DNA of 64,000 nt from Alphaproteobacteria bacterium (GCA_965202835.1 CBDBCA010000002.1:1392427-1456426); one strand, 5' to 3'; positions 5,237 to 40,146 are shown, counted from the first letter of the stretch. Program-made: numbers and translations. Notes: a model not told the origin generated them from the letters alone.

Positions 5237-5424
5237 TTTATAGCGTGTCCGTTCTTGATTGAACCGCCTCGCCCAATTTCTGCCGTCATGGTCGGCGAAG
5301 GCCGACCATCCACGTTTTGTTTTGAATCCAGAGACTTAAAAACTCGTGGATGGTCGGCCTTCGCCGACCATGACGGTTGGGAAGCAAGGGGTAACAGCGC
5401 TTTCTATCCGAAACGGACAGACTC
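5237..5424. repeat. MITE-like 188-bp repeat, copy 1; 32-bp perfect internal inverted repeat arms (5282-5313 / 5344-5375) around a 30-bp AT-rich spacer
   Basis: Near-identical to 39959-40146. The arms CCGTCATGGTCGGCGAAGGCCGACCATCCACG and CGTGGATGGTCGGCCTTCGCCGACCATGACGG are exact reverse complements. Short terminal inverted repeats (tgtccgtt / aacggaca). It sits in a lower-GC intergenic region. Confidence 0.75.
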
Positions 5425-7393: not shown

Positions 7394-8227
7394 ATGCTCG
7401 AACTCTACGATTTCAACAACTCGGTCTGCGCGCAGAAGGTCCGCATGACGCTCGCCGAGAAGGGGCTGGAATGGACGGAGCGCGAAGTCGATCTGTTCCG
7501 GCTCGAGCAGTACGACCCCAAGTACCTCGCCTTCAACCCGAAGGGCGTGGTGCCGACGCTGGTCCATGACGGCACACCGGTGATCGAATCGACGCTGATC
7601 TGCGAATATCTCGACGACGTGTTCCCCGATCCGCCGCTCCGCCCTTCCGCGCCGATGGAACTGTCGGCGATGCGGGTCTGGTCCAAGACGGTGGACGAGG
7701 GTCTCCACGCGGGCATCACCGCGATCAGTTTTTCCGCCATGTTCCGCGAGCGCATGCGGGGAATGACCGACGAGCAGCGCGCGAAGCGCTGGCGCAATAT
7801 CGGCGATCCGGCGCGCAGCGACCGCGACCGCTCGGTTTACGAGCATGGCGTGGAGTCGCCCCATGTCTACAACGCCATCGCGGCGTATGAGTCCGCGTTC
7901 GGGAAGCTGGAGAAGGCTTTTGCCCACGGGCGAAGCTGGGTCATGGGCGATGCCTTCACCCTAGCCGACATCGTGCTCGCCCCCTATATGGCGCGGCTCG
8001 ACTACCTCACCTTGCTCGACGTCTGGACCGGGGGCCGGCCCGGCGTCGCGGCCTGGTGGGAAAAGTTGAAGGAGCGCGCGTCCCTCCGCGTCCAGCTCAG
8101 CGGCAGGCTCACGCCGGAGATGATCGGGCCGATGAACCGGTTCGGCGCCGCGATCCGCGAGCGCGTGGCGGAGCGGCGGGACGAACACCTGGCCGAGCTC
8201 GCCGAAGCCCGCGCGGACGCGGCCTGA
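7394..8227 (+). CDS. glutathione S-transferase family protein
   Basis: MLELYDF...VPTLV...ES GST N-terminal motifs. An SD (AGGGGGGAA) precedes the second ATG. Confidence 0.75.
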   Translation: MLELYDFNNSVCAQKVRMTLAEKGLEWTEREVDLFRLEQYDPKYLAFNPKGVVPTLVHDGTPVIESTLICEYLDDVFPDPPLRPSAPMELSAMRVWSKTVDEGLHAGITAISFSAMFRERMRGMTDEQRAKRWRNIGDPARSDRDRSVYEHGVESPHVYNAIAAYESAFGKLEKAFAHGRSWVMGDAFTLADIVLAPYMARLDYLTLLDVWTGGRPGVAAWWEKLKERASLRVQLSGRLTPEMIGPMNRFGAAIRERVAERRDEHLAELAEARADAA

Positions 8228-8228
8228 G

Positions 8229-9194
8229 GTGAAGGCCTGGCGGTCGGGCGACGTCCCCGGCATAGAGGGCATCGCGCTCGCCGAGATCGCGCCGCCGCGC
8301 CCGGGCCCGGGCGAGTTGCTGATCCGTGTCGAGGCCGCGGCGATCAACTTCTCCGATCTCCTGATGATCGGCGACCGCTACCAGGTCCGCCCCGACCGTC
8401 CCTTCACCCCCGGCCAGGAGGTCGCCGGCGTCGTGGAGGAGGCCGGGCCGGGTGCGGCGATCCGCCCCGGCGCACGCATCGCCGCCAAGACGATCTGGGG
8501 CGGTTTCGCGGAGAAGGCCGTCGTCCGCGACGACATGGCGATGCGACTCCCCGACGGGATTCCGTTCGCGACCGGGGCCGCGCTGCCCGTGGTCTACACC
8601 ACCGCGGTCGTCGCGCTCACCGAGACCGCCTCCGTTCGCGAGGGCGACAGCGTCCTGGTCTTCGCCGCGACCGGCGGCATGGGCATCGCCGCAATGCAGG
8701 TCGCCAAGGCGCTCGGCGCGCGGGCGATCGCCGTCGCCTCGGGCGCGGCGAAGGAGGCGGTCGCCCGGGAGGAAGGCGCCGATGCCGTCATCCCCTCCGG
8801 CGCGGACGATTTCGTCGACCGCGCGATGGCGGCCTCGGGCGGAAGGGGGGTCGATATCGTCGTCGATACCGTCGGCGGCGAGGCGACGGCGCTTGCGCTG
8901 GAATGCCTCGCCTGGCGCGGCGAGCTCCTGATCGTCGGGTTCCTGAGCGGGGAGGTGCCCAGGATTCCGGGGCATCGGCTTCTGCTCAAGGGAGCGTCGG
9001 CGAAAGGCGTCTACTGGGACCACGACCGCGACCGGGCGCTCGTCGGGCGCGCCGTCCGCCGGGTGCTGGAGATGGCCGGGAGCGGTGCGATCCGGCCGCG
9101 CGTCGATACGCGCTACCGCCTCGCCGAACTGCCGCGCGCGCTACACGCGCTCGCACGGCGCGAGACGGTCGGCAAGCTGGTGCTTGCGACCTGA
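8229..9194 (+). CDS. NADPH:quinone oxidoreductase / zinc-independent MDR-family alcohol dehydrogenase-like
   Basis: MDR fold with an AxxGGxG nucleotide motif (AATGGMGIAAMQ). Confidence 0.8.
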   Translation: MKAWRSGDVPGIEGIALAEIAPPRPGPGELLIRVEAAAINFSDLLMIGDRYQVRPDRPFTPGQEVAGVVEEAGPGAAIRPGARIAAKTIWGGFAEKAVVRDDMAMRLPDGIPFATGAALPVVYTTAVVALTETASVREGDSVLVFAATGGMGIAAMQVAKALGARAIAVASGAAKEAVAREEGADAVIPSGADDFVDRAMAASGGRGVDIVVDTVGGEATALALECLAWRGELLIVGFLSGEVPRIPGHRLLLKGASAKGVYWDHDRDRALVGRAVRRVLEMAGSGAIRPRVDTRYRLAELPRALHALARRETVGKLVLAT

Positions 9195-9650
9195 TCCCGG
9201 TTGAGCGGACCGATTCGGCCACCTGCCGCCCGCCTTGCGCCAAGGGCGCGGCGGATGCCGCCGGACCGGATCGATCGAGGGTCAGTCTGAGAGAGAGTTG
9301 TCTCCGCTACGCCAGCGAGTTTGCGACTTGCACTTCTTGCAAATCCTTTCGCCGGCCCACGCACTCTCGAACATCTCACTGCACATCAGGCACGAACGCT
9401 CTCTGGCACTGTACCTGTGCTCCAACCCTTGCTCTTCAACTTCGTAGTCGAGTTCTTCCACATATCCACTCTATCCACAGACGCCTCGGAATGCAATGCC
9501 AAAATTGATTTGGCGACCCCCCTTCCGAAGTTTTTTGTTATAGGAGTGTGCGTGCAAAAGAGGTATCCGCAACGGGGTCGCGGTTCGCGCCCGTTTCGGC
9601 ATATGATGCGCGCCCTGCAACCGAACGGAGGCAGAATCGGAGGTCATGTC

Positions 9651-9866
9651 TTGAAAGAAGACTTGCTGGAGACGACCGGTACGGTAACCGAGAAGCTCCC
9701 CAACGCCATGTTCCGGGTCAAGCTCGAGAACGACCACGAGATCATCGCCCAGCCCAAGGGGAAGATGAGAAAATTCCGCATCCGCGTCATGGTCGGCGAC
9801 CGGGTCGACGTGGAGATGTCGCCCTACGACCTGAGCCGCGGGCGGATCACGTTCCGCCACAAATAG
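9651..9866 (+). CDS. infA: translation initiation factor IF-1
   Basis: 71-aa protein [68 protein letters not shown], closely matching the IF-1 S1-like fold. TTG start 7 nt after GGAGG. The ORF-track ORF 9321..9866 is an in-frame upstream extension. Confidence 0.9.
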
Positions 9867-9951
9867 CCGCGCGGCGTACAACGCCGCCATCGGGCGCCGC
9901 GACGCCGCCCGGCATGCCGGGCACGGACGCCGCGGCGGGAGAGGACGAATT

Positions 9952-11628
9952 GTGACCGAAACCGGGCGCGCAGCGAACGTCGCGGGCATCCGGAGCCCAC
10001 GCGGGTCCGAGCTGACCGCGAAGAGCTGGGCCACAGAGGCGCCGCTCCGCATGCTGATGAACAACCTCGACGCGGAGGTCGCCGAGCATCCCGAGGAACT
10101 CGTCGTCTATGGCGGGATCGGCCGGGCGGCGCGCAACTGGGACTGCTACCGCGCCATCGTGGAGTCGCTCACCCGCCTCGAGGAAGACGAGACCCTCTGC
10201 GTCCAGAGCGGCAAGCCGGTCGGCATCTTCCGCACCCACCCCGACGCGCCCCGCGTGCTGATCGCCAATTCCAACCTGGTCGGCGGCTGGGCCAACTGGG
10301 AGCATTTCAACGAGCTCGACCGCGCCGGGCTGATGATGTACGGCCAGATGACGGCGGGCTCGTGGATCTATATCGGCAGCCAGGGCATCGTCCAGGGCAC
10401 CTACGAGACGTTCTCCGAGGTCGGGCGCCAGCATTTCGGCGGCGATCTCGCGGGCAGGTGGATCCTGACCGGCGGGCTCGGCGGCATGGGAGGCGCGCAG
10501 CCGCTCGCCGCCACCATGGCCGGCGCGAGCCTGATCGCCGTGGAATGCCAGCCGAGCCGGATCGAGTTCCGCCTGAAGACCGGCTACCTCGACACCGAAG
10601 CCGCCTCGATCGACGAGGCGCTCGCGATCGTCGAGCGCGCGCGGGCGGACGGAAAGCCGGTCTCGGTCGGGCTGCTCGGAAATGCGGCGGAGATCTATCC
10701 CGAGATGCTGGAGCGCGGCATCCGACCCGACGCGGTGACCGACCAGACCTCGGCGCACGACCCGTCGAACGGCTACCTGCCGGCAGGCTGGACGCTGGAG
10801 GAATGGGCCGACCGGCGCGAGCGCGACCCGGCCGGCGTCGCCGAGGCGGCCAAGCGGTCGATGGCACGCCAGGTCGAGGCGATGCTCGCCTTCCACCGCG
10901 ACGGCATCCCGGTGCTCGACTACGGCAATAACATCCGCCAGATGGCGTCCGAGGCCGGGCTGAGGGACGCCTTCGACTTCCCGGGCTTCGTCCAGGCCTA
11001 TGTCAGGCCGCTGTTCTGCCGCGGCAAGGGGCCGTTCCGCTGGGCGGCGCTGTCGGGCGATCCGGAGGACATCTACCGCACCGACGAGACGGTGAAGGAG
11101 CTGCTGCCCGACGACCGGGCCCTCCATACCTGGCTCGACATGGCGCGCGAGCGGATCCACTTCCAGGGGCTGCCTTCCAGGATCTGCTGGCTCGGGCTCG
11201 GCGATCGCGACCGGGTGGGGCTCGCCTTCAACGAGCTCGTGCGGTCGGGCGAGATAAGCGGGCCCATCGTGATCGGCCGCGACCACATGGATTCGGGCTC
11301 GGTCGCGAGCCCCAACCGCGAGACCGAGGGGATGCTCGACGGCACCGACGCGGTCGCCGACTGGGCGTTCCTCAACGCGATGCTCAACACCGCCTCGGGC
11401 GCCACCTGGGTCAGCATCCACCACGGCGGCGGGGTCGGCATGGGCTATTCGCAGCACGCCGGCATGGTGGTGCTCGCCGACGGCACCGACGACGCCGAAC
11501 GCAAGCTCGCTCGCGTGCTGTGGAACGACCCCGGCTCCGGCGTGATGCGCCACGCCGACGCGGGCTACGACATCGCGATCGAGACCGCCCGCGCCCACGG
11601 CCTCGACCTGCCGATGCTGGAGGGTTAG
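9952..11628 (+). CDS. hutU: urocanate hydratase
   Basis: 558 aa with urocanase motifs ([39 protein letters not shown]). GTG start. Confidence 0.9.
11400..11628 (+). repeat. left copy of the roughly 229-bp direct repeat (3' end of intact hutU) flanking the inserted cassette
   Basis: Re-occurs at 13763-13991 with 4 substitutions, all synonymous in the hutU frame. Confidence 0.85.
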
Positions 11629-11788
11629 CCGGGCGCGAGGTTTCCTCCCCTTCCCGTCACGATGGCGGCGCGCCCGATGTCTCGCCACGACCGGTCGGCA
11701 AGCCGGTTACGCAACGCTGGCGATATTCTGCGCGCTGCCCCATGATGGCGGAATACTGCTGGGGAACATCCTCGACGCGGCACGTCCA

Positions 11789-13075
11789 ATGCGCATCGAT
11801 CGGCTAACTGTCTCGAACTTCAAGAAATTCGAAGAGGAAACCTTCGAATTTCATCGCCAATTCACGCTTCTGGTGGGCGACAACGGCGCTGGCAAGACGG
11901 CCGTCCTGGATGCACTTCGTATCGGCGTGGGTGCATACCTGCTCGGGATCCCTTACGGGCAAGCACCCTCGATCAAACGGGAATATGTGCGGCGAGAGAC
12001 CAGACGAAATGGGGAGTTCTCGACTTTCGAGCCCGTCACGCCATCCGTGGTCGGATGCGAAGGACGCGTGCATCTTTCCGATCTTCGCTGGAATCGCGAA
12101 TTGGCCTCGTTCCGTGGGCGAACGAATCGAGTCGGGGCGCGGGAACTTGTACGGTGCGTCGCCAAGTACTTTCGGGAAAACGATCCGGGAATGAACTTCC
12201 CGCTGATCGTTTCGTACGGCACGGGGCGTTTGTGGATCGAGCCGCGGACCACGAAGAAAGCCCGCTCCGCAGTCCGCGAGCCTCTCGGCCGGCTGTCCCG
12301 GTTCGAAGCCTATCGCGGCTGCCTTGGCCCAGCGGTTTCGTCCGAATTGCTGCGCCGGTGGATCAAGAAAATGGCGCTGATCGCGGTTCAAGAGAAGCAG
12401 TCGCTGGCGAGTCTCGATGCGGTCTATTCGGCGGTTGTGGGCTGCGTCGAGGGTGTGGACCGGGCGCTTTACGATTTCGACCTCGACGATATTGCGCTCG
12501 ATTTCGAGGATGGAGAACGTTATCCGTTCGGCTTCCTTAGCGACGGGCAAAGAAGCATGGCGGCACTCGCTGCCGACATCGCGTTGCGATGCGTTCAACT
12601 GAACCCACATCTGGCGGGGGAGGCGCCGCACGAGACCGAGGGCGTGGCGCTGATCGATGAGTTGGACCTCCACTTGCATCCGAATTGGCAGCGCGTCGTT
12701 GTGCGCAACCTGACCTCCCTCTTTCCGAAATTGCAGTTTGTCGCCACGACGCACTCGCCGTTCATCGTTCAGTCGCTCGACGGTCAAGGGCTGGTCAATC
12801 TCAGCGATCGGGGCGTTCTGGAGGAACGAAAGGAGCCGTACAGTATCGAAGACGTGGCCGAAGAAACCATGGGCGTGGATGCGCCACAACGGAGCAAGCT
12901 GTTTCTGGAAATGGAGGCTGCGGCGGGGCGCTACTACGAACTCCTTGATCGGTTGAGCGAAGACGATCCGGCCGTAATACAAGCGAAGGCGGAGTTGAAC
13001 CGAATCGAAGCGCGCTTCTCCGACAATCCGGCATACGCCGCTTTGCTGAAGCTGCAGCGTTCTGCGGCCGAGTAG
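11789..13075 (+). CDS. ABC-type (AAA_15/AAA_21-like) ATPase, Septu PtuA-like
   Basis: Walker A GDNGAGKT, signature-like LSDGQRS, Walker B ALIDELDLHLHP, H-loop TTHSP. Lower GC than its surroundings. Immediately followed by an HNH nuclease gene. Confidence 0.7.
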   Translation: MRIDRLTVSNFKKFEEETFEFHRQFTLLVGDNGAGKTAVLDALRIGVGAYLLGIPYGQAPSIKREYVRRETRRNGEFSTFEPVTPSVVGCEGRVHLSDLRWNRELASFRGRTNRVGARELVRCVAKYFRENDPGMNFPLIVSYGTGRLWIEPRTTKKARSAVREPLGRLSRFEAYRGCLGPAVSSELLRRWIKKMALIAVQEKQSLASLDAVYSAVVGCVEGVDRALYDFDLDDIALDFEDGERYPFGFLSDGQRSMAALAADIALRCVQLNPHLAGEAPHETEGVALIDELDLHLHPNWQRVVVRNLTSLFPKLQFVATTHSPFIVQSLDGQGLVNLSDRGVLEERKEPYSIEDVAEETMGVDAPQRSKLFLEMEAAAGRYYELLDRLSEDDPAVIQAKAELNRIEARFSDNPAYAALLKLQRSAAE

Positions 13076-13092
13076 CGGAAGCCAACAGCGCG

Positions 13093-13713
13093 ATGCGATC
13101 GGTCGAACGCGGATCGTGGCCGACCGAAAGCGACGGCCACCGGAAGTCCTTCTCCCAGTACGGGCACGTGAAAGCGCCGCTAATCGAAAGAATTGGCGAG
13201 TATTGCAGCTATTGCGAGCGTCCCGGCGACCTCCATGTCGAACACGTCGTTCCCAAATCTGTGAAGGACGACCTCGAAAATGAGTGGTCGAATTTCCTGC
13301 TCGGATGCGCAAATTGCAACAGCCGCAAGTCGGACAAAAACGCTTCGAGAGATGGGTATCTTTGGTCGGATCGCGACGACACGTTCGGCGCCTTCGTATA
13401 CCGGCCGGGCGGAAGGGTGTCGGTGAACGGCGGACTTGCGCGGCCGCAGCGTGGTAAGGCGGCGGCGCTGTTCGACCTTGTCGGGCTCGGCGAAACGGGA
13501 ACCCGCACCGACAGACGCCGCCGCAAAAGGCGCCAAGCCTGGGATCAAGCAGTCAAAGTTCGCGACCTCATCAACAACGGTAATTCAAGGACTCTTGCCG
13601 TCGACTTGGCTGTGGCAATCGGATTCTTCAGCGTTTGGATGGCGGTGTTTCACGAGGACAAAGATATGCGTAACCGCTTGGTAAACGCATTTCCGGGAAC
13701 GCGAACGGGATAG
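13093..13713 (+). CDS. HNH endonuclease, Septu PtuB-like (TIGR02646-type)
   Basis: HNH motif [19 protein letters not shown]...[12 protein letters not shown]. 18 bp downstream of the ATPase gene. Confidence 0.7.
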
Positions 13714-13762
13714 CGATCGTTTCCCCCCGAATGTCCCGACGACAGCCGATTTCGGTATCCAG

Positions 13763-13991
13763 CGCCACCTGGGTCAGCATCCACCACGGCGGCGGGGTCG
13801 GCATGGGCTATTCCCAGCACGCCGGCATGGTGGTGCTCGCCGACGGCACCGACGACGCCGAACGCAAGCTCGCCCGCGTGCTGTGGAACGACCCCGGCTC
13901 CGGCGTGATGCGCCACGCCGACGCGGGCTACGACATCGCGATCGAGACCGCCCGCGCCCACGGCCTCGACCTTCCGATGCTGGAGGGGTAG
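13763..13991 (+). pseudogene. displaced duplicate of the hutU 3' end (last ~76 codons), right copy of the direct repeat
   Basis: The translation [75 protein letters not shown] is identical to the hutU C-terminus. It has no upstream hutU body. Confidence 0.85.
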
Positions 13992-14054
13992 AGGGGACGG
14001 CGCCAGCGCCGTATCGAGGGACGGCATCCTCCACCGCAGCCGCCCGCCCCGATT

Positions 14055-14081
14055 GTCACCCCGGACTTGTTCCGGGGTGAC
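14055..14081. repeat. REP-like hairpin, copy B GTCACCCCGGActtgtTCCGGGGTGAC (11-bp perfect stem)
   Basis: Perfect inverted repeat. It lies between the hutU remnant and the convergent MBL gene. Confidence 0.7.
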
Positions 14082-14106
14082 AAACCCAGGGTGAGCCAGA
14101 CCCGCC

Positions 14107-14907
14107 CTACAGCGTCATCAGGTCCTCGCCGATGACCAGCGCGCCGGCGTAGTCGCGGCGAATGATCTCGCTGAGCTCGCGGGGTTCGGAGTCCGGCAGC
14201 ATGTGGGTGGTGACCAGCAGGCCGACATCGGCGTCCTTCGCCACCAGGGAAAGCCGTTCCGGCGAGGTGTGGGCGTGCGGGGTGTGGCTCTTGTCGATAT
14301 CGGGCGCCTTCCACCTGTCGTATTGCACGCATTCGTGGATCAGCACGTCCGCGCCGTGCGCGTGGCGGATCAGGTTCTCGCAGGGACAGGTGTCGCCCGA
14401 CAGCACGATCCGGCGGTCCTTCGATTCGAAGAGGTAGCCGAAGGGCTGATCCAGCGGATAGTGGTCCACGTCGAAGGCGGTCACCCGGACCCCGTCGACC
14501 TCGGTGGCGAGGCCCTGGTCGATCTCGTGCACCACGATGTTCGGCATCCCGCGCGGCGTCTTCCGGATCTTCATCCGCATTTCGAGGTCCGGGCGGTGCA
14601 TTTCCAGCAACTGCTCGACCATCGTCCGGATGCCCGGCGGCCCGTAGACGTGCCAGGGCGTGTCGCCGCCGTAGATCCAGCGGCAGATGATGAAATGCCC
14701 GAGATCGATGTAGTGGTCGGAATGGAGATGCGTGATGAACAGATGGTCGACCTGGTCCGGACTGACTCCCGCCTCGACCATGCGCGCGACGATGCCCGAG
14801 CCGCAATCGACCACGAAGTTGCTGGCGCCCGCGCGGACCACGTAGCCCGGGCCGCGGCGCTTGGGGTTAGGAAACGGCAGCCCGGTTCCCAGAAGGCTGA
14901 CTTGCAT
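14107..14907 (-). CDS. MBL-fold metallo-hydrolase
   Basis: HLHSDH metal-binding motif. Start at MQVSLLGTG. The upstream part of the ORF-track ORF is not coding. Confidence 0.8.
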   Translation of the reverse strand: MQVSLLGTGLPFPNPKRRGPGYVVRAGASNFVVDCGSGIVARMVEAGVSPDQVDHLFITHLHSDHYIDLGHFIICRWIYGGDTPWHVYGPPGIRTMVEQLLEMHRPDLEMRMKIRKTPRGMPNIVVHEIDQGLATEVDGVRVTAFDVDHYPLDQPFGYLFESKDRRIVLSGDTCPCENLIRHAHGADVLIHECVQYDRWKAPDIDKSHTPHAHTSPERLSLVAKDADVGLLVTTHMLPDSEPRELSEIIRRDYAGALVIGEDLMTL

Positions 14908-15041
14908 GGTGTCTCTCCCGGTCGGCGGTGCGAAGACCCGAACCGTACCACCAGCGGGGGTGGCGCACATGCGGGACACAGGTTTCCAGTTTAGGCGAAT
15001 TTCGGTATTGATTTGGTATGATATCAGCCCAATTTATGGGT

Positions 15042-15305
15042 ATGGAGTTCGAATTCGATCCGGAGAAGCGCGCCGCGAACGAGATCGAGCACGGCATCGA
15101 CTTCGATGACGCGCAGGCGCTTTGGGACGATCCCTGGCTGCTCGAAGCGCCGGCCCGGACGGAAGACGAGCCGCGCTTTATCATGATCGGCAGGATCGGG
15201 GATCGGCACTGGTCGGCGGTCTGCACGTTCCGCGGCGAACGCATACGGATTATCTCGGTCCGCCGCGCACGCAATGAGGAGGTCGAGCGCTATGAAAGCC
15301 CATGA
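15042..15305 (+). CDS. brnT: type II toxin BrnT (DUF497 ribonuclease)
   Basis: MEFEFDPEKRAANEIEHGIDFDDAQALWDDP...RIISVRRARNEE matches the BrnT family signature. It overlaps the downstream RHH antitoxin gene by 14 nt. Confidence 0.75.
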   Translation: MEFEFDPEKRAANEIEHGIDFDDAQALWDDPWLLEAPARTEDEPRFIMIGRIGDRHWSAVCTFRGERIRIISVRRARNEEVERYESP

Positions 15306-15516
15306 GTTCGACCGGGCCTTCGATTCCGGGGAGGATGTGAGCGGGCAGGTGGACTGGTCGCGGGCGCGGCGGGTGAATACCGAGTCCAGGCGCGTCAACG
15401 TGGATTTCCCGGCCTGGGTCGTCGCCGCGCTCGACCGGCAGGCCAGGATGCACGGCGTGCCGCGGCAATCCCTCATCAAGCTCTGGATCGCCGAACGGCT
15501 GAAGCAAATCTCCTGA
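15292..15516 (+). CDS. brnA: type II antitoxin BrnA (CopG/RHH-like)
   Basis: Small protein MKAHEFDRAFDSGEDV...PAWVVAALDRQARMHGVPRQSLIKLWIAERL. Toxin-first BrnTA order. Confidence 0.7.
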   Translation: MKAHEFDRAFDSGEDVSGQVDWSRARRVNTESRRVNVDFPAWVVAALDRQARMHGVPRQSLIKLWIAERLKQIS

Positions 15517-15622
15517 GGGCAGAGCGCGGGACGTTCGCGACCGCGTCGCAGCCCTCCGTCGCTGCCGCGGCTCGGGCGACAGCCGGCTCAGTCCTGCCGA
15601 CTGTCGCCCCGCGAACCCGCGC

Positions 15623-16630
15623 CTATTTCCAGACGCCGGCTTCCTTGTAGTACTTCGCGGCGCCGGGATGGAACTCCATGTTCGCCTTCTGGGCGGCGAA
15701 TTCGAGCGAGACCGCGTCCATATAGGGCGCGCTCTTGCGGATCCCGTCGAGATTGGACCAGAACAGCTTGGTCATCGTGTAGACGCTGTCGTCGTCGAGC
15801 CCGGTCCGCGCCGTCACCCCGAGAATCGCGTTGTTCGTCCAGACATCGGCCTCGTTGGTGTGGTTGGCCCCGTAGACGCCCTTCTTGATGACGCCCTTGA
15901 TCCGACCGAGCGGGGCGAAGAACTTCTTCAACGCCTCGTTCTGCAACAGGTCGGCCTCCTTCGGCACGCCGAGAAAGCGGATCCTGGAGGTCGCCGCGAC
16001 CTGCTGGAGCTGCGCGCAGGGATCGAGGCACCCGATGGTGTAGACATCGATCTGCCGGTCCTGGAATGCCTGCAGCGCCGAGGCGAAGTTGAGGTTCACG
16101 CTCTTGAAGTCGCCCTTCTTGGGCGAGAGTCCCGTCAGGGCCTGGATGAACCCGAGCCCGGTCACCAACTGCCCGCCGGACGGGGGACCGATGAAGGCCC
16201 GCTTGCCCTTGATGTCGGCCAGCGTCTTGATGCCGGAATTCTCATAGACCGTGTAGTGGAAGCCGCCGGCGGGGAACCAGAAGACCGCCTTCAGGTTCTT
16301 CGCCAGCTCCTTGACGCCCTTCAGCTTCTTGTAGATCCGGGTCCCCTTTTTCATCCACTCATAGGGAACCGGCGCGGTCATCGACATGTCGATCGAGCCG
16401 CGCGCCACATCGACCATGTGCTTGGTCGCCGTGCCGGTGGCGTCGACGGTGATCTCGAAGTCCTTCTGCCCTTGGTTCACCAGGTTGGCGAAGGTGGTCA
16501 TGACGAGATACATCGACGAGCCCGGCGCGATGGTCGACATCTTGATCTGCCGCTTCTGCGCCTCGGCGGGCATCGCTATCGCGGCCGCCAGCAACCCTGC
16601 GACGGCCAGTACGTTCCAACGCCTCATCAT
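15623..16630 (-). CDS. TAXI-family TRAP transporter solute-binding protein
   Basis: Signal peptide MMRRWNVLAVAGLLAAAIAMPAEA followed by a TAXI-type periplasmic domain. Its start overlaps the stop of the permease gene (ATGA). Confidence 0.8.
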   Translation of the reverse strand: MMRRWNVLAVAGLLAAAIAMPAEAQKRQIKMSTIAPGSSMYLVMTTFANLVNQGQKDFEITVDATGTATKHMVDVARGSIDMSMTAPVPYEWMKKGTRIYKKLKGVKELAKNLKAVFWFPAGGFHYTVYENSGIKTLADIKGKRAFIGPPSGGQLVTGLGFIQALTGLSPKKGDFKSVNLNFASALQAFQDRQIDVYTIGCLDPCAQLQQVAATSRIRFLGVPKEADLLQNEALKKFFAPLGRIKGVIKKGVYGANHTNEADVWTNNAILGVTARTGLDDDSVYTMTKLFWSNLDGIRKSAPYMDAVSLEFAAQKANMEFHPGAAKYYKEAGVWK

Positions 16631-18864: not shown

Positions 18865-20604
18865 ATGCTTACCAAGCTCACCGTCCGGAACTTCAAACGC
18901 TTCGGGGCGGTCGAGATCGAGCTCGGCAATCCGGTCGTGTTCATCGGGCCGAACAATTCGGGGAAGACCTCGGCGATGCAGGCCCTGGCGCTGTGGGATA
19001 TCGGCGTCAAGCGGTGGAACGAAAAGCGGGCCGGCAAGAGCGCGCCGGAAAAGCGTCCCGGCGTAACGGTCAACCGGAGGGACCTCTTCGCCATCCCTCA
19101 TCCGAGCGCCGTACACCTGTGGCGCGACCTGCACGTGCGGGACGTCCGGAGCGTCGAGGGGCGGCAAAGCACCGACAACGTGCGTATCGACCTGATCGTC
19201 GAAGGGGTCGACGAGGGCAAGGTCTGGACCTGCGGCCTGGAATTCGACTACGCGAACGAGGAATCGTTCTATTGCCGGCCGCTGCGGCTTGACGACGCCA
19301 AGCCGCCGAAGCGGATGCCGATCCCGAACGAAGCCGGATCGCTACGCATCGCCTTTCTGCCACCCATGTCCGGTCTGGCCGCGACCGAGACCCGGCTCGA
19401 TCAGGGCGCGGTGAACGTGAGGGTCGGCGAGGGTCGAACGGCCGAAGTCCTCCGCAACCTGTGTTTCCGCATCCTGACGGAGAATCCCGACGGGTGGGCT
19501 TCGCTGGTGACGCGTATCGAAGGCCTGTTCGGCGTGGAACTCGAAGAGCCCCGTTATGTCGAGGAACGGGGAGAAATTACCATGGGGTACCGGGAACATG
19601 GTTCGGCCCTGGACCTCTCGTCCAGCGGGCGCGGCTTGCAGCAAACGCTCCTGATCCTCGCCTACATGCACGCCAATCCGGGCGCGGTCATCCTGCTGGA
19701 CGAGCCGGACGCGCATCTCGAAATCCTCCGCCAGCGCCAGATCTACAGCCTCATCGCGGCGGTTGCGTCGGAAAGCGGCAACCAGATCGTCGCCGCGAGC
19801 CATTCCGAGGTGTTGCTCAACGAAGCCGCAGACAAGGACCTCGTGATCGCCTTCGTCGGCAAGCCGCACCGGATCGGCGACGGGCAGAGTCAAGTGCGCA
19901 AGGCGCTGGCGGAGATCGGCTTCGATCAGTACTACCAGGCCGAGCAGACCGGCTGGGTGCTCTATCTCGAAGGCTCGACCGATCTGGCGATATTGCAAGC
20001 GTTCGCGAGGAGGCTCGGCAAGGACAGGGCCGTCCGGGCGCTGGAAAGACCGTTCGTCCGCTATGTCGGGAACAGCCCGCCGACGGCCGCGCACCACTTC
20101 CACGGGCTGAGGGAAGCCATTCCCGGCCTCAAGGGGGTGGCCCTCTACGACCGTCTCGAACCAGGCGCGCCGGACGATCCGTATCTCCGACATCTGGTCT
20201 GGCACCGGCGGGAGATCGAGAACTATCTCTGTACCCGGACGACCCTGGAGACTTACGCTCGCGCGTCCGCCATGGCGGCCGAGCCGAGACCCCTGCTCGC
20301 CCCCCTTGAAGTCGACGGTCGGTTGACGGCTATGGACGAAGCGATCGGGGAGGTAAGCCGGGCCCTCGAAACCCTCGGCAAGGGATCGCCCTGGGAGAAT
20401 GACCTTAAGGTGAGCGACGAGTTCTTGACGCCGCTCTTCAAGGCCTATTTCGAGCGGATCGGCATCCCCAACCTGATGAGCAAGAAGAACTTCTACGAGC
20501 TCGCCGACTACGTTCCTGAGGCAGAGATCGACCCGGAAATCGGCGAAAAGCTGGATGCGATCGCCACGGTCGCGGAGAGCGCGAGGCCGGCGGAGGAGGA
20601 ATAG
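18865..20604 (+). CDS. stand-alone OLD-family-like ATPase with Toprim-like C-terminal domain (GajA / class-1 OLD / fused PARIS-like)
   Basis: Walker A GPNNSGKTS, signature-like LSSSGRGLQQ, Walker B VILLDEPDAHLE, H-loop ASHS. The C-terminal ~230 aa carry a Toprim-like E...D pattern (VLYLEGSTDLAILQ, VALYDRLEP). It is flanked by about 300 bp and 180 bp non-coding gaps and unrelated genes. Confidence 0.65.
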   Translation: MLTKLTVRNFKRFGAVEIELGNPVVFIGPNNSGKTSAMQALALWDIGVKRWNEKRAGKSAPEKRPGVTVNRRDLFAIPHPSAVHLWRDLHVRDVRSVEGRQSTDNVRIDLIVEGVDEGKVWTCGLEFDYANEESFYCRPLRLDDAKPPKRMPIPNEAGSLRIAFLPPMSGLAATETRLDQGAVNVRVGEGRTAEVLRNLCFRILTENPDGWASLVTRIEGLFGVELEEPRYVEERGEITMGYREHGSALDLSSSGRGLQQTLLILAYMHANPGAVILLDEPDAHLEILRQRQIYSLIAAVASESGNQIVAASHSEVLLNEAADKDLVIAFVGKPHRIGDGQSQVRKALAEIGFDQYYQAEQTGWVLYLEGSTDLAILQAFARRLGKDRAVRALERPFVRYVGNSPPTAAHHFHGLREAIPGLKGVALYDRLEPGAPDDPYLRHLVWHRREIENYLCTRTTLETYARASAMAAEPRPLLAPLEVDGRLTAMDEAIGEVSRALETLGKGSPWENDLKVSDEFLTPLFKAYFERIGIPNLMSKKNFYELADYVPEAEIDPEIGEKLDAIATVAESARPAEEE

Positions 20605-25000: not shown

Positions 25001-25146
25001 GACCCCGGAACAAGTTCGGGGTGACAATTTGTGCGGTTTCCGAAAACGAGCCCGGCAATCGAGCGGCCGTACAACGGCCTTCGTCGCGCAGCCGGCGCCC
25101 TGCCGCCCGCTGTCACCCCGGGCTTGTTCCGGGGTCCAGGGAAGCC
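25001..25146. repeat. pair of REP-like hairpins in opposite orientation (copy C 25001-25025, reverse and imperfect; copy D 25122-25146)
   Basis: GACCCCGGAACAAGTTCGGGGTGAC and GTCACCCCGGGCTTGTTCCGGGGTC, about 120 bp apart between convergent genes (BIME-like doublet). Confidence 0.65.
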
Positions 25147-39958: not shown

Positions 39959-40146
39959 TCTATAGCGTGTCCGTTCTTGATTGAACCGCCTCGTCCATTT
40001 TCTTCCGTCATGGTCGGCGAAGGCCGACCATCCACGTTTTGTTTTTGATTCCAGAGACTTAAAAACTCGTGGATGGTCGGCCTTCGCCGACCATGACGGT
40101 TAGGAAGCAAGGGTAACAGCGCTTCCATCTGAGACGGACAGGCTCT
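39959..40146. repeat. MITE-like 188-bp repeat, copy 2
   Basis: Near-identical to 5237-5424, including the 32-bp inverted-repeat arms. Confidence 0.75.

Follow-up and report, generated by a model that had tools for sequence, protein, structure and literature searches.

The window (the whole 64-kb stretch of DNA analyzed) carries an intact hutU gene, a lower-GC 2.1-kb insert with ptuA and ptuB directly behind it, and a displaced copy of the hutU 3' end beyond the insert (Table 1). For orthologues of the window HutU (94-97% aa identity), infA-hutU synteny was kept. An ungapped alignment places the two copies of the hutU end 2363 nt apart. Of their 230 nt, 4 differ (11451 G/C, 11511 T/C, 11610 G/T, 11625 T/G), and each of these differences falls at codon position 3 without altering the amino acid (tcg/tcc, gct/gcc, ctg/ctt, ggt/ggg). 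Copy 1 starts at codon position 2. Identity between the copies breaks off sharply at both edges, at 11398/13761 on the left and immediately past the stop codon at the right-hand edge. No longer direct repeat occurs within the window, and an 86-aa ORF (13731..13991) spans copy 2. The alignment thus agreed with the original prediction of a recurring hutU end with synonymous differences only, except that the predicted start of copy 2, 13763, was off by one; the true start is 13762 and the repeat is 230 nt long.

Table 1. Coordinates of features at the hutU locus, counted from the first nucleotide of the window
Feature	Coordinates	Strand	Basis or remark
hutU (urocanate hydratase), intact live gene	9952..11628	+	558-aa ORF; full-length Pfam Urocanase_N, Urocanase and Urocanase_C matches
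Repeat copy 1, last 230 nt of live hutU, TAG stop included	11399..11628	+	ungapped alignment to copy 2
GC-rich 75-bp filler, hutU stop to conserved cassette	11629..11703	+	unconserved in most other ptuAB loci
Conserved cassette leader, promoter-like elements	11704..11788	+	nucleotide homology to cassettes of other phyla starts here
ptuA, Septu ABC-type ATPase, 428 aa	11789..13075	+	PADLOC, Pfam and PDB matches, motifs
ptuB, Septu HNH nuclease, 206 aa	13093..13713	+	PADLOC, Pfam, motifs
48-bp 3' tail of insert, to copy 2 junction	13714..13761	+	weakly conserved
Repeat copy 2, displaced hutU 3' fragment (pseudogene)	13762..13991	+	lacks the first 482 hutU codons
Ancestral hutU-MBL intergenic region	13992..14106	.	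matches native intergenic region of L175/L176
REP-like palindrome	14053-14083		within hutU-MBL intergenic region
MBL-fold hydrolase gene, ancestral convergent neighbor of hutU	14107..14907	-	Pfam Lactamase_B_2 4.6e-20

Windowed GC was 0.57-0.63 inside the insert vs. 0.69-0.73 in the flanks, as had been predicted for the interval between the copies. The insert is fully accounted for by the 75-bp filler, a 2.0-kb conserved cassette and the 48-bp tail. The filler is identical in three related contigs (L001, L002, L178) and gave no significant match among the sequences searched; its identification as native hutU-downstream sequence was dropped, as shuffle p values were at least 0.06 against the hutU-downstream region of every relative. 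The leader contains the elements TGGCGA (11718-11723) and CATGAT (11741-11746) with a 17-nt spacer, and the GCTGGCGAT...CATGAT block was conserved in an alignment of 24 upstream regions (the window and 23 loci). A strict sigma-70 scan of 11500-14200, conserved leader included, called no promoter, and a terminator scan of the same interval gave a single, chance-level match; from its conserved elements, the leader may act as the cassette's own promoter. The two genes lie on the same strand with 17 nt between the ptuA stop and the ptuB start, and their pairing recurs in >15 related loci. Past the ptuB stop conservation is weak (~35 nt), with CCCGACGACAGCC common to the window and L166; the tail differs at 0-2 positions among all cassette-bearing strains.

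The two genes were identified as the PtuA/PtuB pair of Septu, in agreement with the original prediction, and the motifs quoted there were all present. PtuA matched the PADLOC PtuA profile PDLC00278 over residues 1-426 of 428 (1.1e-125), with Pfam matches to AAA_15 (1.3e-21), AAA_21 (1.7e-18) and SMC_N. Its similarity to the solved E. coli-type PtuA (PDB 8ee4) was moderate (E = 3.7e-41), with residues 1-338 aligned and the C-terminal 90 residues unaligned; the aligned part included the catalytic motifs Walker A (GDNGAGKT), signature (LSDGQR), Walker B (LIDELDLHLHP) and H-loop (TTHSP). PtuB matched the PADLOC PtuB profile PDLC00315 over residues 1-205 of 206 (1e-70) and Pfam HNH (6.9e-9), its motifs CSYC...HVEHVVP...CANCN were intact, and the match to solved PtuB/TIGR02646 chains was weak (7.7e-5). 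As in the stand-alone Septu structures 8EE4 and 8EE7, an ABC/AAA_15 ATPase is followed by an HNH nuclease in a two-gene operon. Unlike the E. coli-type protein, the window PtuA belongs to a high-GC alphaproteobacterium and keeps the canonical glutamine of LSDGQR, where 8ee4 has LSDGLR, a form for which ATPase activity was reported to be absent (PMC12819146).

Retron type I-A (Ec78/Eco7) carries a homologous ATPase and HNH effector pair, and retron structures (9vh1, 9kjx and others) matched the ATPase core of the window PtuA at 1e-27 to 1e-29. The PADLOC retron profiles ATPase_I-A (1.6e-53) and HNH_I-A (2.7e-12) were also hit, with PtuA profiles scoring far higher than I-A. Retron type I-A PtuA is ~550 aa with a retron-specific N-terminal extension, whereas the window PtuA is 428 aa and lacks it. 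An Rfam search of 9000-16000 gave no credible ncRNA (best E = 0.54, 14 bits vs. a 40-bit gathering score), and no family reached even half its gathering score. Neither a retron msr/msd RNA nor a reverse transcriptase was found in the insert, which holds ptuA and ptuB only and leaves no space for a reverse transcriptase; the neighbors of ptuAB are hutU and the MBL gene. The insert is therefore a standard stand-alone (type I) Septu module, with neither a retron nor an integrase. PMC12819146 and PMC13096335 describe Septu as cutting nucleic acid, with DNA nicking and tRNA-Tyr cleavage reported. By homology to such characterized systems, this ptuAB pair would have putative anti-phage activity: PtuA and PtuB would form an ATPase-nuclease complex, restrained until phage infection, and on infection the complex would cut nucleic acid and so halt phage replication.

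Relatives of the hutU locus were gathered via IF-1 and HutU homologues; an exact look-up of the window HutU sequence returned no record. Both insert junctions were the same as in the window in L001, L002 and L163, and L178 shares the left junction, its contig ending inside ptuA. These are independently assembled contigs, with L001, L002 and L163 from different samples, and because the same arrangement recurs among them, the assembly artefact that had been named as a possible refutation was excluded. Identity between the window and L163 was matching in cassette (95-96%) and flanks (93.5-96.5%). A single ancestral insertion is thus common to the cassette-bearing strains. In six relatives (L168, L169, L172, L175, L176, L179) the site is empty, with hutU followed directly by the MBL gene, and five (L170, L173, L177, L171, L174) carry other cargo after hutU. 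The cargo between the conserved neighbors comprises toxin-antitoxin pairs, an IS element, ATPases and Septu, and because it differs among relatives the hutU/MBL site is a hotspot, in line with the original prediction. The flank to the right of copy 2 matched the L175/L176 intergenic region with a score reached by 0/300 shuffles; together with the six empty sites this establishes the MBL gene and the adjoining intergenic region as the ancestral neighbors of hutU, also as proposed. The half-site of the palindrome in that region has 7 matches in the window vs. 1.35 expected and recurs in relatives. Further downstream, a 579-aa AAA_15 protein gave partial PADLOC matches only, and no system was assigned to it.

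The two copies co-vary within each genome, with 0-7 within-genome differences. In L163 they are identical (0 differences) yet stand at 14 differences from the window's copies; the Poisson probability of 0 differences given 14 expected is ~8e-7, and the pattern points to concerted evolution by gene conversion. Copy 2 is an unselected pseudogene fragment, as its frameshift, missense changes and deletion of 3 bp in L001 and L002 show. Gene conversion and decay of copy 2 were thus both observed. Judged against outgroups, 11511 and 11625 are later changes of the live gene and 11610 a later change of copy 2, so that 3 of the 4 window differences postdate the insertion and 11451 alone may have separated the copies from the start. 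The claim that synonymous-only divergence implies a functional donor allele therefore failed on all three counts (the later changes seen with outgroups, conversion in L163, decay in L001 and L002). Most, perhaps all, of the allelic differences have been lost to gene conversion, and an origin of the copies from different alleles cannot be shown. At this locus conversion gives a dead gene fragment the appearance of purifying selection, a warning that synonymous-only differences between a gene and a nearby partial duplicate prove neither that the duplicate is a functional allele nor that it came from one. Homologous recombination is also active at the locus: an imported patch in L178, ~8% diverged, ends inside copy 1, and the window differs from L001/L002 by 0.1% in the cassette but by 1-5% in the flanks.

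Approximately 100 PtuA relatives were found at 64-97% aa identity, the next tier lying at <=49%. Hosts of the close relatives include Pseudomonadales, Rariloculaceae, Binatia, Paracoccaceae, Bryobacterales and Ca. Synechococcus spongiarum; by these matches and its lower GC, the cassette is foreign to the window genome and has spread over several bacterial phyla. Screening JGI metagenomes with PtuA gave no relative above 43% identity and no useful contexts for the cassette clade. What is conserved across loci starts with the promoter-like leader and finishes at the ptuB stop; beyond these limits no conserved terminal or att-like ends were found across cassette loci. Flanking duplications were present in 2/19 cassette loci, of 230 nt in the window lineage and 52 nt in L004, where intergenic sequence is tightly duplicated around a cassette of the same family; the other 17 had no flanking duplication above a 9-13-nt background. 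Large flanking repeats in L165 were rejected as a target duplication, being diverged paralogous GerE/integrase modules (77-84% identity). None of 25 other cassette-clade loci examined lies at hutU. Related ptuAB cassettes occur on integrase islands in L164 and L166 and beside a tRNA in L012.

No ORF in 11629-13761 encodes a site-specific recombinase, and Pfam gene tables for L001 and L002 held no integrase within ~10 kb, so the predicted lack of an integrase was upheld. Transposon or IS hallmarks were likewise not found: the insert ends have no inverted repeats, there is no transposase gene, and ends are not conserved. The duplications (230 nt, 52 nt or absent) do not form a short target duplication of fixed length. 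The insert, bounded by direct repeats of the 3' end of its target gene as e14 is, therefore stands without integrase, terminal repeats or att-like ends.

Septu identity, a single insertion and gene conversion, taken alone, we hold to be close to certain. For the entry itself, integrase-free host recombination is the most likely origin, although once this route is included the whole statement could equally well prove right or wrong. A single entry at the hutU/MBL hotspot, in an ancestor of this Defluviicoccus-like alphaproteobacterial lineage, would have been brought about by host recombination without an element-encoded recombinase, the donor DNA carrying a hutU 3' end with the cassette behind it. 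When a circle integrates by a Campbell-type crossover, the segment of homology ends up as two direct repeats. A circularized donor fragment could accordingly have recombined with the recipient hutU in a single Campbell-type crossover; alternatively, one end may have been joined by homologous recombination and the other illegitimately. By either route hutU would stay intact and its original 230-nt end would be displaced downstream. After the entry, gene conversion has homogenized the copies again and again, with copy 2 decaying in the intervals, and close strains have also swapped the hutU-cassette segment via homologous recombination. In this clade intergenic regions cannot be aligned even for relatives whose hutU is ~91% identical, so the homology of two hutU alleles would stop at the stop codon; because the repeat ends exactly there, and not on account of the synonymous-only divergence, a donor-derived hutU end is a reasonable model. 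Among the genomes searched, none showed the donor context, a hutU with the 75-bp filler and ptuAB behind it but no second copy. Homology-facilitated illegitimate recombination, as outlined in PMC3240628, combines a homologous anchor with an illegitimate junction and uses no element-encoded enzymes. The entry proposed at hutU, for which no donor was found, would resemble it in bringing in foreign DNA without enzymes of the element, and Campbell-type integration in leaving direct repeats; classical homology-facilitated illegitimate recombination usually deletes recipient DNA, whereas the hutU locus shows a duplication.

A long target-site duplication via staggered breaks would yield the same final structure, although we consider it rather unlikely as the origin. 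The cassette and its two tails (75 bp and 48 bp) would be ligated between single-strand breaks staggered by 230 nt, e.g. at a broken replication fork or during end joining, and fill-in would duplicate the hutU end with no donor hutU. The copies would be identical at birth, which fits the few differences within genomes, and the shorter duplication in L004 would imply a length that varies with the site. However, one break would have to coincide with the final base of the stop codon, a chance of ~1 in 100 within the 115-nt intergenic region, the great majority of cassette loci (17) lack a duplication above background, and we know of no bacterial pathway that routinely makes 50-230-nt duplications.

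Distinctly unlikely, in our estimate, is a remnant of a site-specific integrative element of the type of e14 or phage 21 at icd: an integrase island whose attP carried the 230-nt hutU end would have integrated into hutU and been reduced by later deletions to ptuAB only. In e14 the architecture is the same: live icd lies on one side and the C-terminal pseudogene icdC on the other, their differences are mostly synonymous, and recombination between the copies would remove the insert and leave a chimeric gene (PMC13626634). As there, foreign DNA lies between an intact gene and a displaced duplicate of its 3' end; a replacement copy ending exactly at the stop would be expected if an element was selected to restore the gene, and related cassettes do sit on integrase islands or next to a tRNA. 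But e14 and phage 21 have their own integrase and a short crossover core, whereas the 2.1-kb hutU insert holds no integrase or fragment of one, the surrounding ~10 kb contain none, its copies are kept alike by gene conversion, and every strain covering the insert has the same minimal structure. L170, L173 and L177 have a single hutU end despite other cargo, which shows that hutU does not serve repeatedly as an att site, and a recombinase identity block of 230 nt would be very long.

An assembly or chimera artefact, or a functional small ORF under selection in copy 2, could appeal to the 86-aa ORF and the all-synonymous differences of the window, but is extremely improbable and refuted by the junctions in the independent assemblies (both in three, the left one in L178), by the state of copy 2, which is frameshifted in L002 and altered in L001 by missense changes and an in-frame deletion, and by gene conversion, which explains the likeness of copy 2 to copy 1.

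The locus is a known system, ordinary Septu, in an unusual but explicable setting. It offers a clean natural example of a minimal defense cassette spread across phyla with no mobility genes of its own, of a neighboring core gene preserved by duplication of its end, and of the misleading effect of gene conversion described above. It is very unlikely, though conceivable, that the duplicated end is more than a scar and serves as a built-in homology arm, by which the cassette would loop out through RecA as a circle with one copy and re-enter by a single crossover; the target may then be the hutU of any related genome, and gene conversion would maintain the match between arm and host gene. If so, ptuAB would be a recombinase-free, reversibly integrating defense module, L004 would be a second instance of a possibly general route for minimal defense cassettes, and excision and re-integration through the repeat would explain how integrase-less defense cassettes move within hotspots. 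Like other defense hotspots and islands flanked by core genes, the site has variable cargo between conserved neighbors and a segment exchanged by flanking homology; its occupant differs in being a very small single system with a duplicated gene end, a duplication that to our knowledge most described hotspots lack.

The last 230 nt of hutU recur downstream of a Septu gene pair, at an offset of 2363 nt, and form the longest direct repeat within the 64-kb window. Identity between the live 3' end (copy 1) and the displaced fragment (copy 2, hutU') breaks off sharply at 11398/13761 on the left and directly past the stop codon on the right. The four mismatches (11451, 11511, 11610 and 11625) are each synonymous, at codon position 3. 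GC content is 0.57-0.63 in the 2133 nt separating the copies vs. 0.69-0.73 on both flanks. A 75-nt filler, the conserved cassette (2.0 kb) and a tail of 48 nt together make up the complete insert. The original prediction had described the repeat and the low-GC insert correctly, its sole slip being a copy 2 start that was off by one base.

Features of the hutU-Septu locus and of the repeats and defence-related genes around it (window positions)
Feature	Position	Strand	Basis or remark
Dispersed ~150-bp element	5239-5390; 39961-40113		Long palindrome CGTCATGGTCGGCGAAGGCCGACCATCCACG ... CGTGGATGGTCGGCCTTCGCCGACCATGACG
hutU, complete urocanate hydratase (558 aa)	9952-11628	+	Full-span matches to each of the three Pfam urocanase domains
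Repeat copy 1	11399-11628	+	Last 230 nt of hutU, including TAG stop
Conserved leader block	11716-11746		GCTGGCGAT-N17-CATGAT
ptuA (428 aa)	11789-13075		PADLOC PtuA full length, best 1.1e-125; Pfam AAA_15, AAA_21, SMC_N; solved Septu PtuA 8ee4, 3.7e-41
PtuA signature (residues 248-253)	12530-12547		LSDGQR
ptuB (206 aa)	13093-13713		PADLOC PtuB full length, 1e-70; Pfam HNH; weak match to solved PtuB/TIGR02646 proteins
Repeat copy 2 (hutU')	13762-13991	+	Match to copy 1
Palindrome	14053-14083		TTGTCACCCCGGA-CTTGT-TCCGGGGTGACAA
MBL-fold gene	14107-14907	-	Sub-threshold Pfam match to Apyc1
BrnT-toxin/CopG-like antitoxin pair	15036-15516	+	Pfam annotation of L001/L002 orthologues
AAA_15/AAA_21 ATPase (579 aa)	18865-20604	+	Partial PADLOC matches
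Palindrome half-sites	25015-25027; 25110-25122		

The two cassette genes are separated by 17 nt, and the aligned PtuA motifs comprise Walker A (GDNGAGKT), the signature, Walker B (LIDELD) and the H-loop (TTHSP). The full-length PADLOC matches, together with those to Pfam and to solved structures, bear out the predicted PtuA/PtuB identity, and assignment to Septu, an already known kind of system, is nearly certain on these matches. A type I-A retron was rejected: no reverse transcriptase is present in the insert, an Rfam search of the region returned a single chance-level match (E = 0.54, 14 bits vs. the 40-bit gathering score), and the protein does not have the ~120 aa by which retron-associated PtuA is longer, which together argue for a stand-alone pair. 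Two reports (PMC12819146; PMC13096335) describe PtuAB as an ATPase-nuclease complex in which phage infection leads to DNA nicking and/or tRNA-Tyr cleavage, and the same anti-phage action is assumed here by homology. The signature carries the canonical glutamine, whereas the solved stand-alone PtuA 8ee4 has LSDGLR, a type reported to be without ATPase activity (PMC12819146); by this criterion, the PtuA clade of the window may be ATPase-active.

To find relatives, searches started from HutU homologues and from IF-1, an invariant protein. Six of the relatives (L168, L169, L172, L175, L176 and L179) have hutU directly followed by a convergent MBL-fold gene, with a single hutU end and no cassette, the closest being L179 (95% amino acid identity in HutU). 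The flank right of copy 2 matched the sequence that natively separates hutU from the MBL gene in L175 and L176 (score reached in 0/300 shuffles), so the ancestral arrangement is represented by copy 2 and all that lies right of it, with the MBL gene as the ancestral neighbour of hutU, as had been proposed. Elsewhere among the relatives, hutU or infA is followed by different cargo, namely an IS element with PIN toxins (L170), a PemK-type toxin (L173) and unknown genes (L177); L171 and L174 have an AAA_15 ATPase and no hutU. The site is therefore a hotspot with variable content, also in agreement with the original prediction. The Defluviicoccus sp. label on a cluster-mate of a 94%-identical HutU suggests that the host is a Defluviicoccus-like alphaproteobacterium.

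The insertion is carried by four further independently assembled metagenome contigs, L001, L002, L163 and L178 (samples ERZ25068633, ERZ26693581, ERZ23495130 and ERZ23495318). L001 and L002 (~98% identical to the window) and L163 (95.6%) all have the order hutU-ptuA-ptuB-hutU'-MBL with the same junction sequences; L178, with a HutU 97% identical to the window's, has the same left junction and ends inside ptuA. As the junctions recur in independent assemblies, an assembly artefact was rejected. Cassette identity between L163 and the window (95-96%) is comparable to that of hutU (96.5%) and of the MBL gene (93.5%), which indicates one old insertion that has been inherited vertically since.

Both repeat copies of four strains (window, L001, L002 and L163) were aligned. 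In L163 the copies are identical to each other over the 230-nt core, yet 14 sites separate them from the window's, some of them in a non-synonymous block (GCC CGC GCC to GCG AGG CGG). Copy 1 and copy 2 differ at 0, 4, 7 and 7 sites within genomes vs. 12-18 sites when the L163 lineage is compared with that of the window, L001 and L002, and the Poisson probability of 0 differences with ~14 expected is about 8e-7. Likeness within genomes combined with shared junctions indicates concerted evolution, the two hutU copies having been homogenised by gene conversion after the strains split. Copy 2 is not under selection, because it bears lesions in L002 (a 1-nt insertion and Asp-to-Val) and L001 (Gly-to-Ser, Leu-to-Pro and a 3-nt deletion). 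By outgroup polarisation, 11511T is private to the window's live gene, 11625T is a derived state that the window shares with L001 in the live gene, and 11610T is one that it shares with L002 in copy 2; at 11451, relatives are polymorphic. Selection on hutU explains why the live-gene changes are synonymous, and the lone copy 2 change is synonymous by chance. Given conversion, copy 2 decay and these later changes, the synonymous-only pattern is uninformative on a functional donor allele for copy 2, and the original argument for one fails.

Approximately 100 PtuA proteins are 64-97% identical to that of the window, with the next tier at ≤49%. In species-representative genomes, identity is 87% in Pseudomonadales, 82% in Rariloculaceae and Binatia, 79% in Paracoccaceae, 73% in Ca. 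Synechococcus spongiarum and Prochlorococcaceae, and 66% in Arenicellales and Bryobacterales; other Alphaproteobacteria are also hosts. This distribution indicates recent transfer of the cassette across phyla, and the names of several hosts point to sponge-associated bacteria. Nucleotide homology with the other loci starts ~75-85 nt 5' of ptuA, at the conserved leader block, which looks like a promoter but was not called by a strict sigma-70 scan, and stops at the ptuB stop or ~35 nt past it; no conserved terminal repeats or att-like ends were found across the loci compared. Settings vary from integrase-bearing defence islands (L164, L166) and the vicinity of tRNA-Pro (L012, ~930 nt downstream of the gene) to plain chromosomal sites, and hutU was involved at 0/25 other clade loci examined. 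Two cassette copies, each ~71% identical in amino acids to the window PtuA, occur in one Paracoccaceae genome (OZ241882.1; L012 and L016). When 19 loci were scanned uniformly, only the window lineage (230 nt) and L004, a Pseudomonadales MAG (OZ241345), had flanking direct repeats longer than the 9-13-nt background, so the duplication is not intrinsic to the cassette. The L004 repeat (7542-7593 and 10062-10113 of that locus; 52 bp, 96% identical, 41 nt exact) tightly brackets the cassette; the sequence it duplicates is intergenic and lies 5' of an acyl-CoA synthetase gene, and the repeat is a candidate target duplication.

The original prediction's point that no integrase is present was borne out: no recombinase or transposase was found in the insert and no integrase within about 10 kb. 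Homologous recombination has clearly been active at the locus. The L178 hutU contains an imported patch of ~1 kb (mapping to 10400-11451) that is ~8% diverged from the window vs. ~1% elsewhere. On its right the patch ends within copy 1, where its SNPs agree with empty-site relatives, L169 for example. When the window is compared with L001/L002, divergence is 0.1% in the cassette and 0.1-1% across the hutU-ptuAB segment (9000-13900) vs. 1-5%, in a mosaic, in the flanks (3-5% at 4-6 kb and 14-19 kb), which suggests that the segment with the cassette has recently spread by recombination or undergone a sweep.

Entry through a hutU 3' end borne on the donor DNA was the favoured route and was given roughly an even chance. 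The donor end would supply homology for host recombination, either as a circularised fragment entering by a Campbell-type single crossover, or with one end joined by homologous recombination and the other illegitimately. Intergenic regions of the clade are unalignable even where hutU is ~91% identical, so homology between two hutU alleles would end at the stop codon, exactly where the repeat ends. A long target-site duplication that involved no hutU sequence from a donor gains some support from L004, but a random staggered break would fall at the stop codon with a probability of only ~1/100, and this route was considered rather unlikely. A degraded e14-like integrase element, although of the same architecture (PMC13626634), is a still more doubtful source, as the insert holds no recombinase trace and hutU is not recurrently used. 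Alleles cannot tell these models apart, because gene conversion erased the allelic information.

Recombination between the copies would precisely delete the cassette and restore hutU beside its native flank, and the reverse reaction could put an excised circle back in. Such excision and re-insertion is improbable, because cassette presence or absence follows phylogeny among the strains available. The locus neatly exemplifies cassette insertion without an integrase, in which a gene end was duplicated and its copies have evolved in concert.

The palindrome between copy 2 and the MBL gene fits the predicted REP hairpin; its half-site has 7 matches in the window vs. 1.35 expected and recurs in L168 and L170. 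The MBL-fold protein scored 23 bits against anti-Pycsar protein Apyc1 (50-bit cut-off) and is probably an ordinary hydrolase, since relatives keep its gene beside hutU as part of the conserved core. The adjoining BrnT/CopG-like pair is missing or partial in some relatives. The 579-aa ATPase matched PADLOC profiles only in part (NsnB 1e-22, AriA 3e-20, GajA N-terminus), occurs in the empty-site relative L175 as well, and may be an unclassified defence ATPase of the same variable region. The dispersed element, whose copies are 95-96% identical, resembles a MITE or REP-type repeat.
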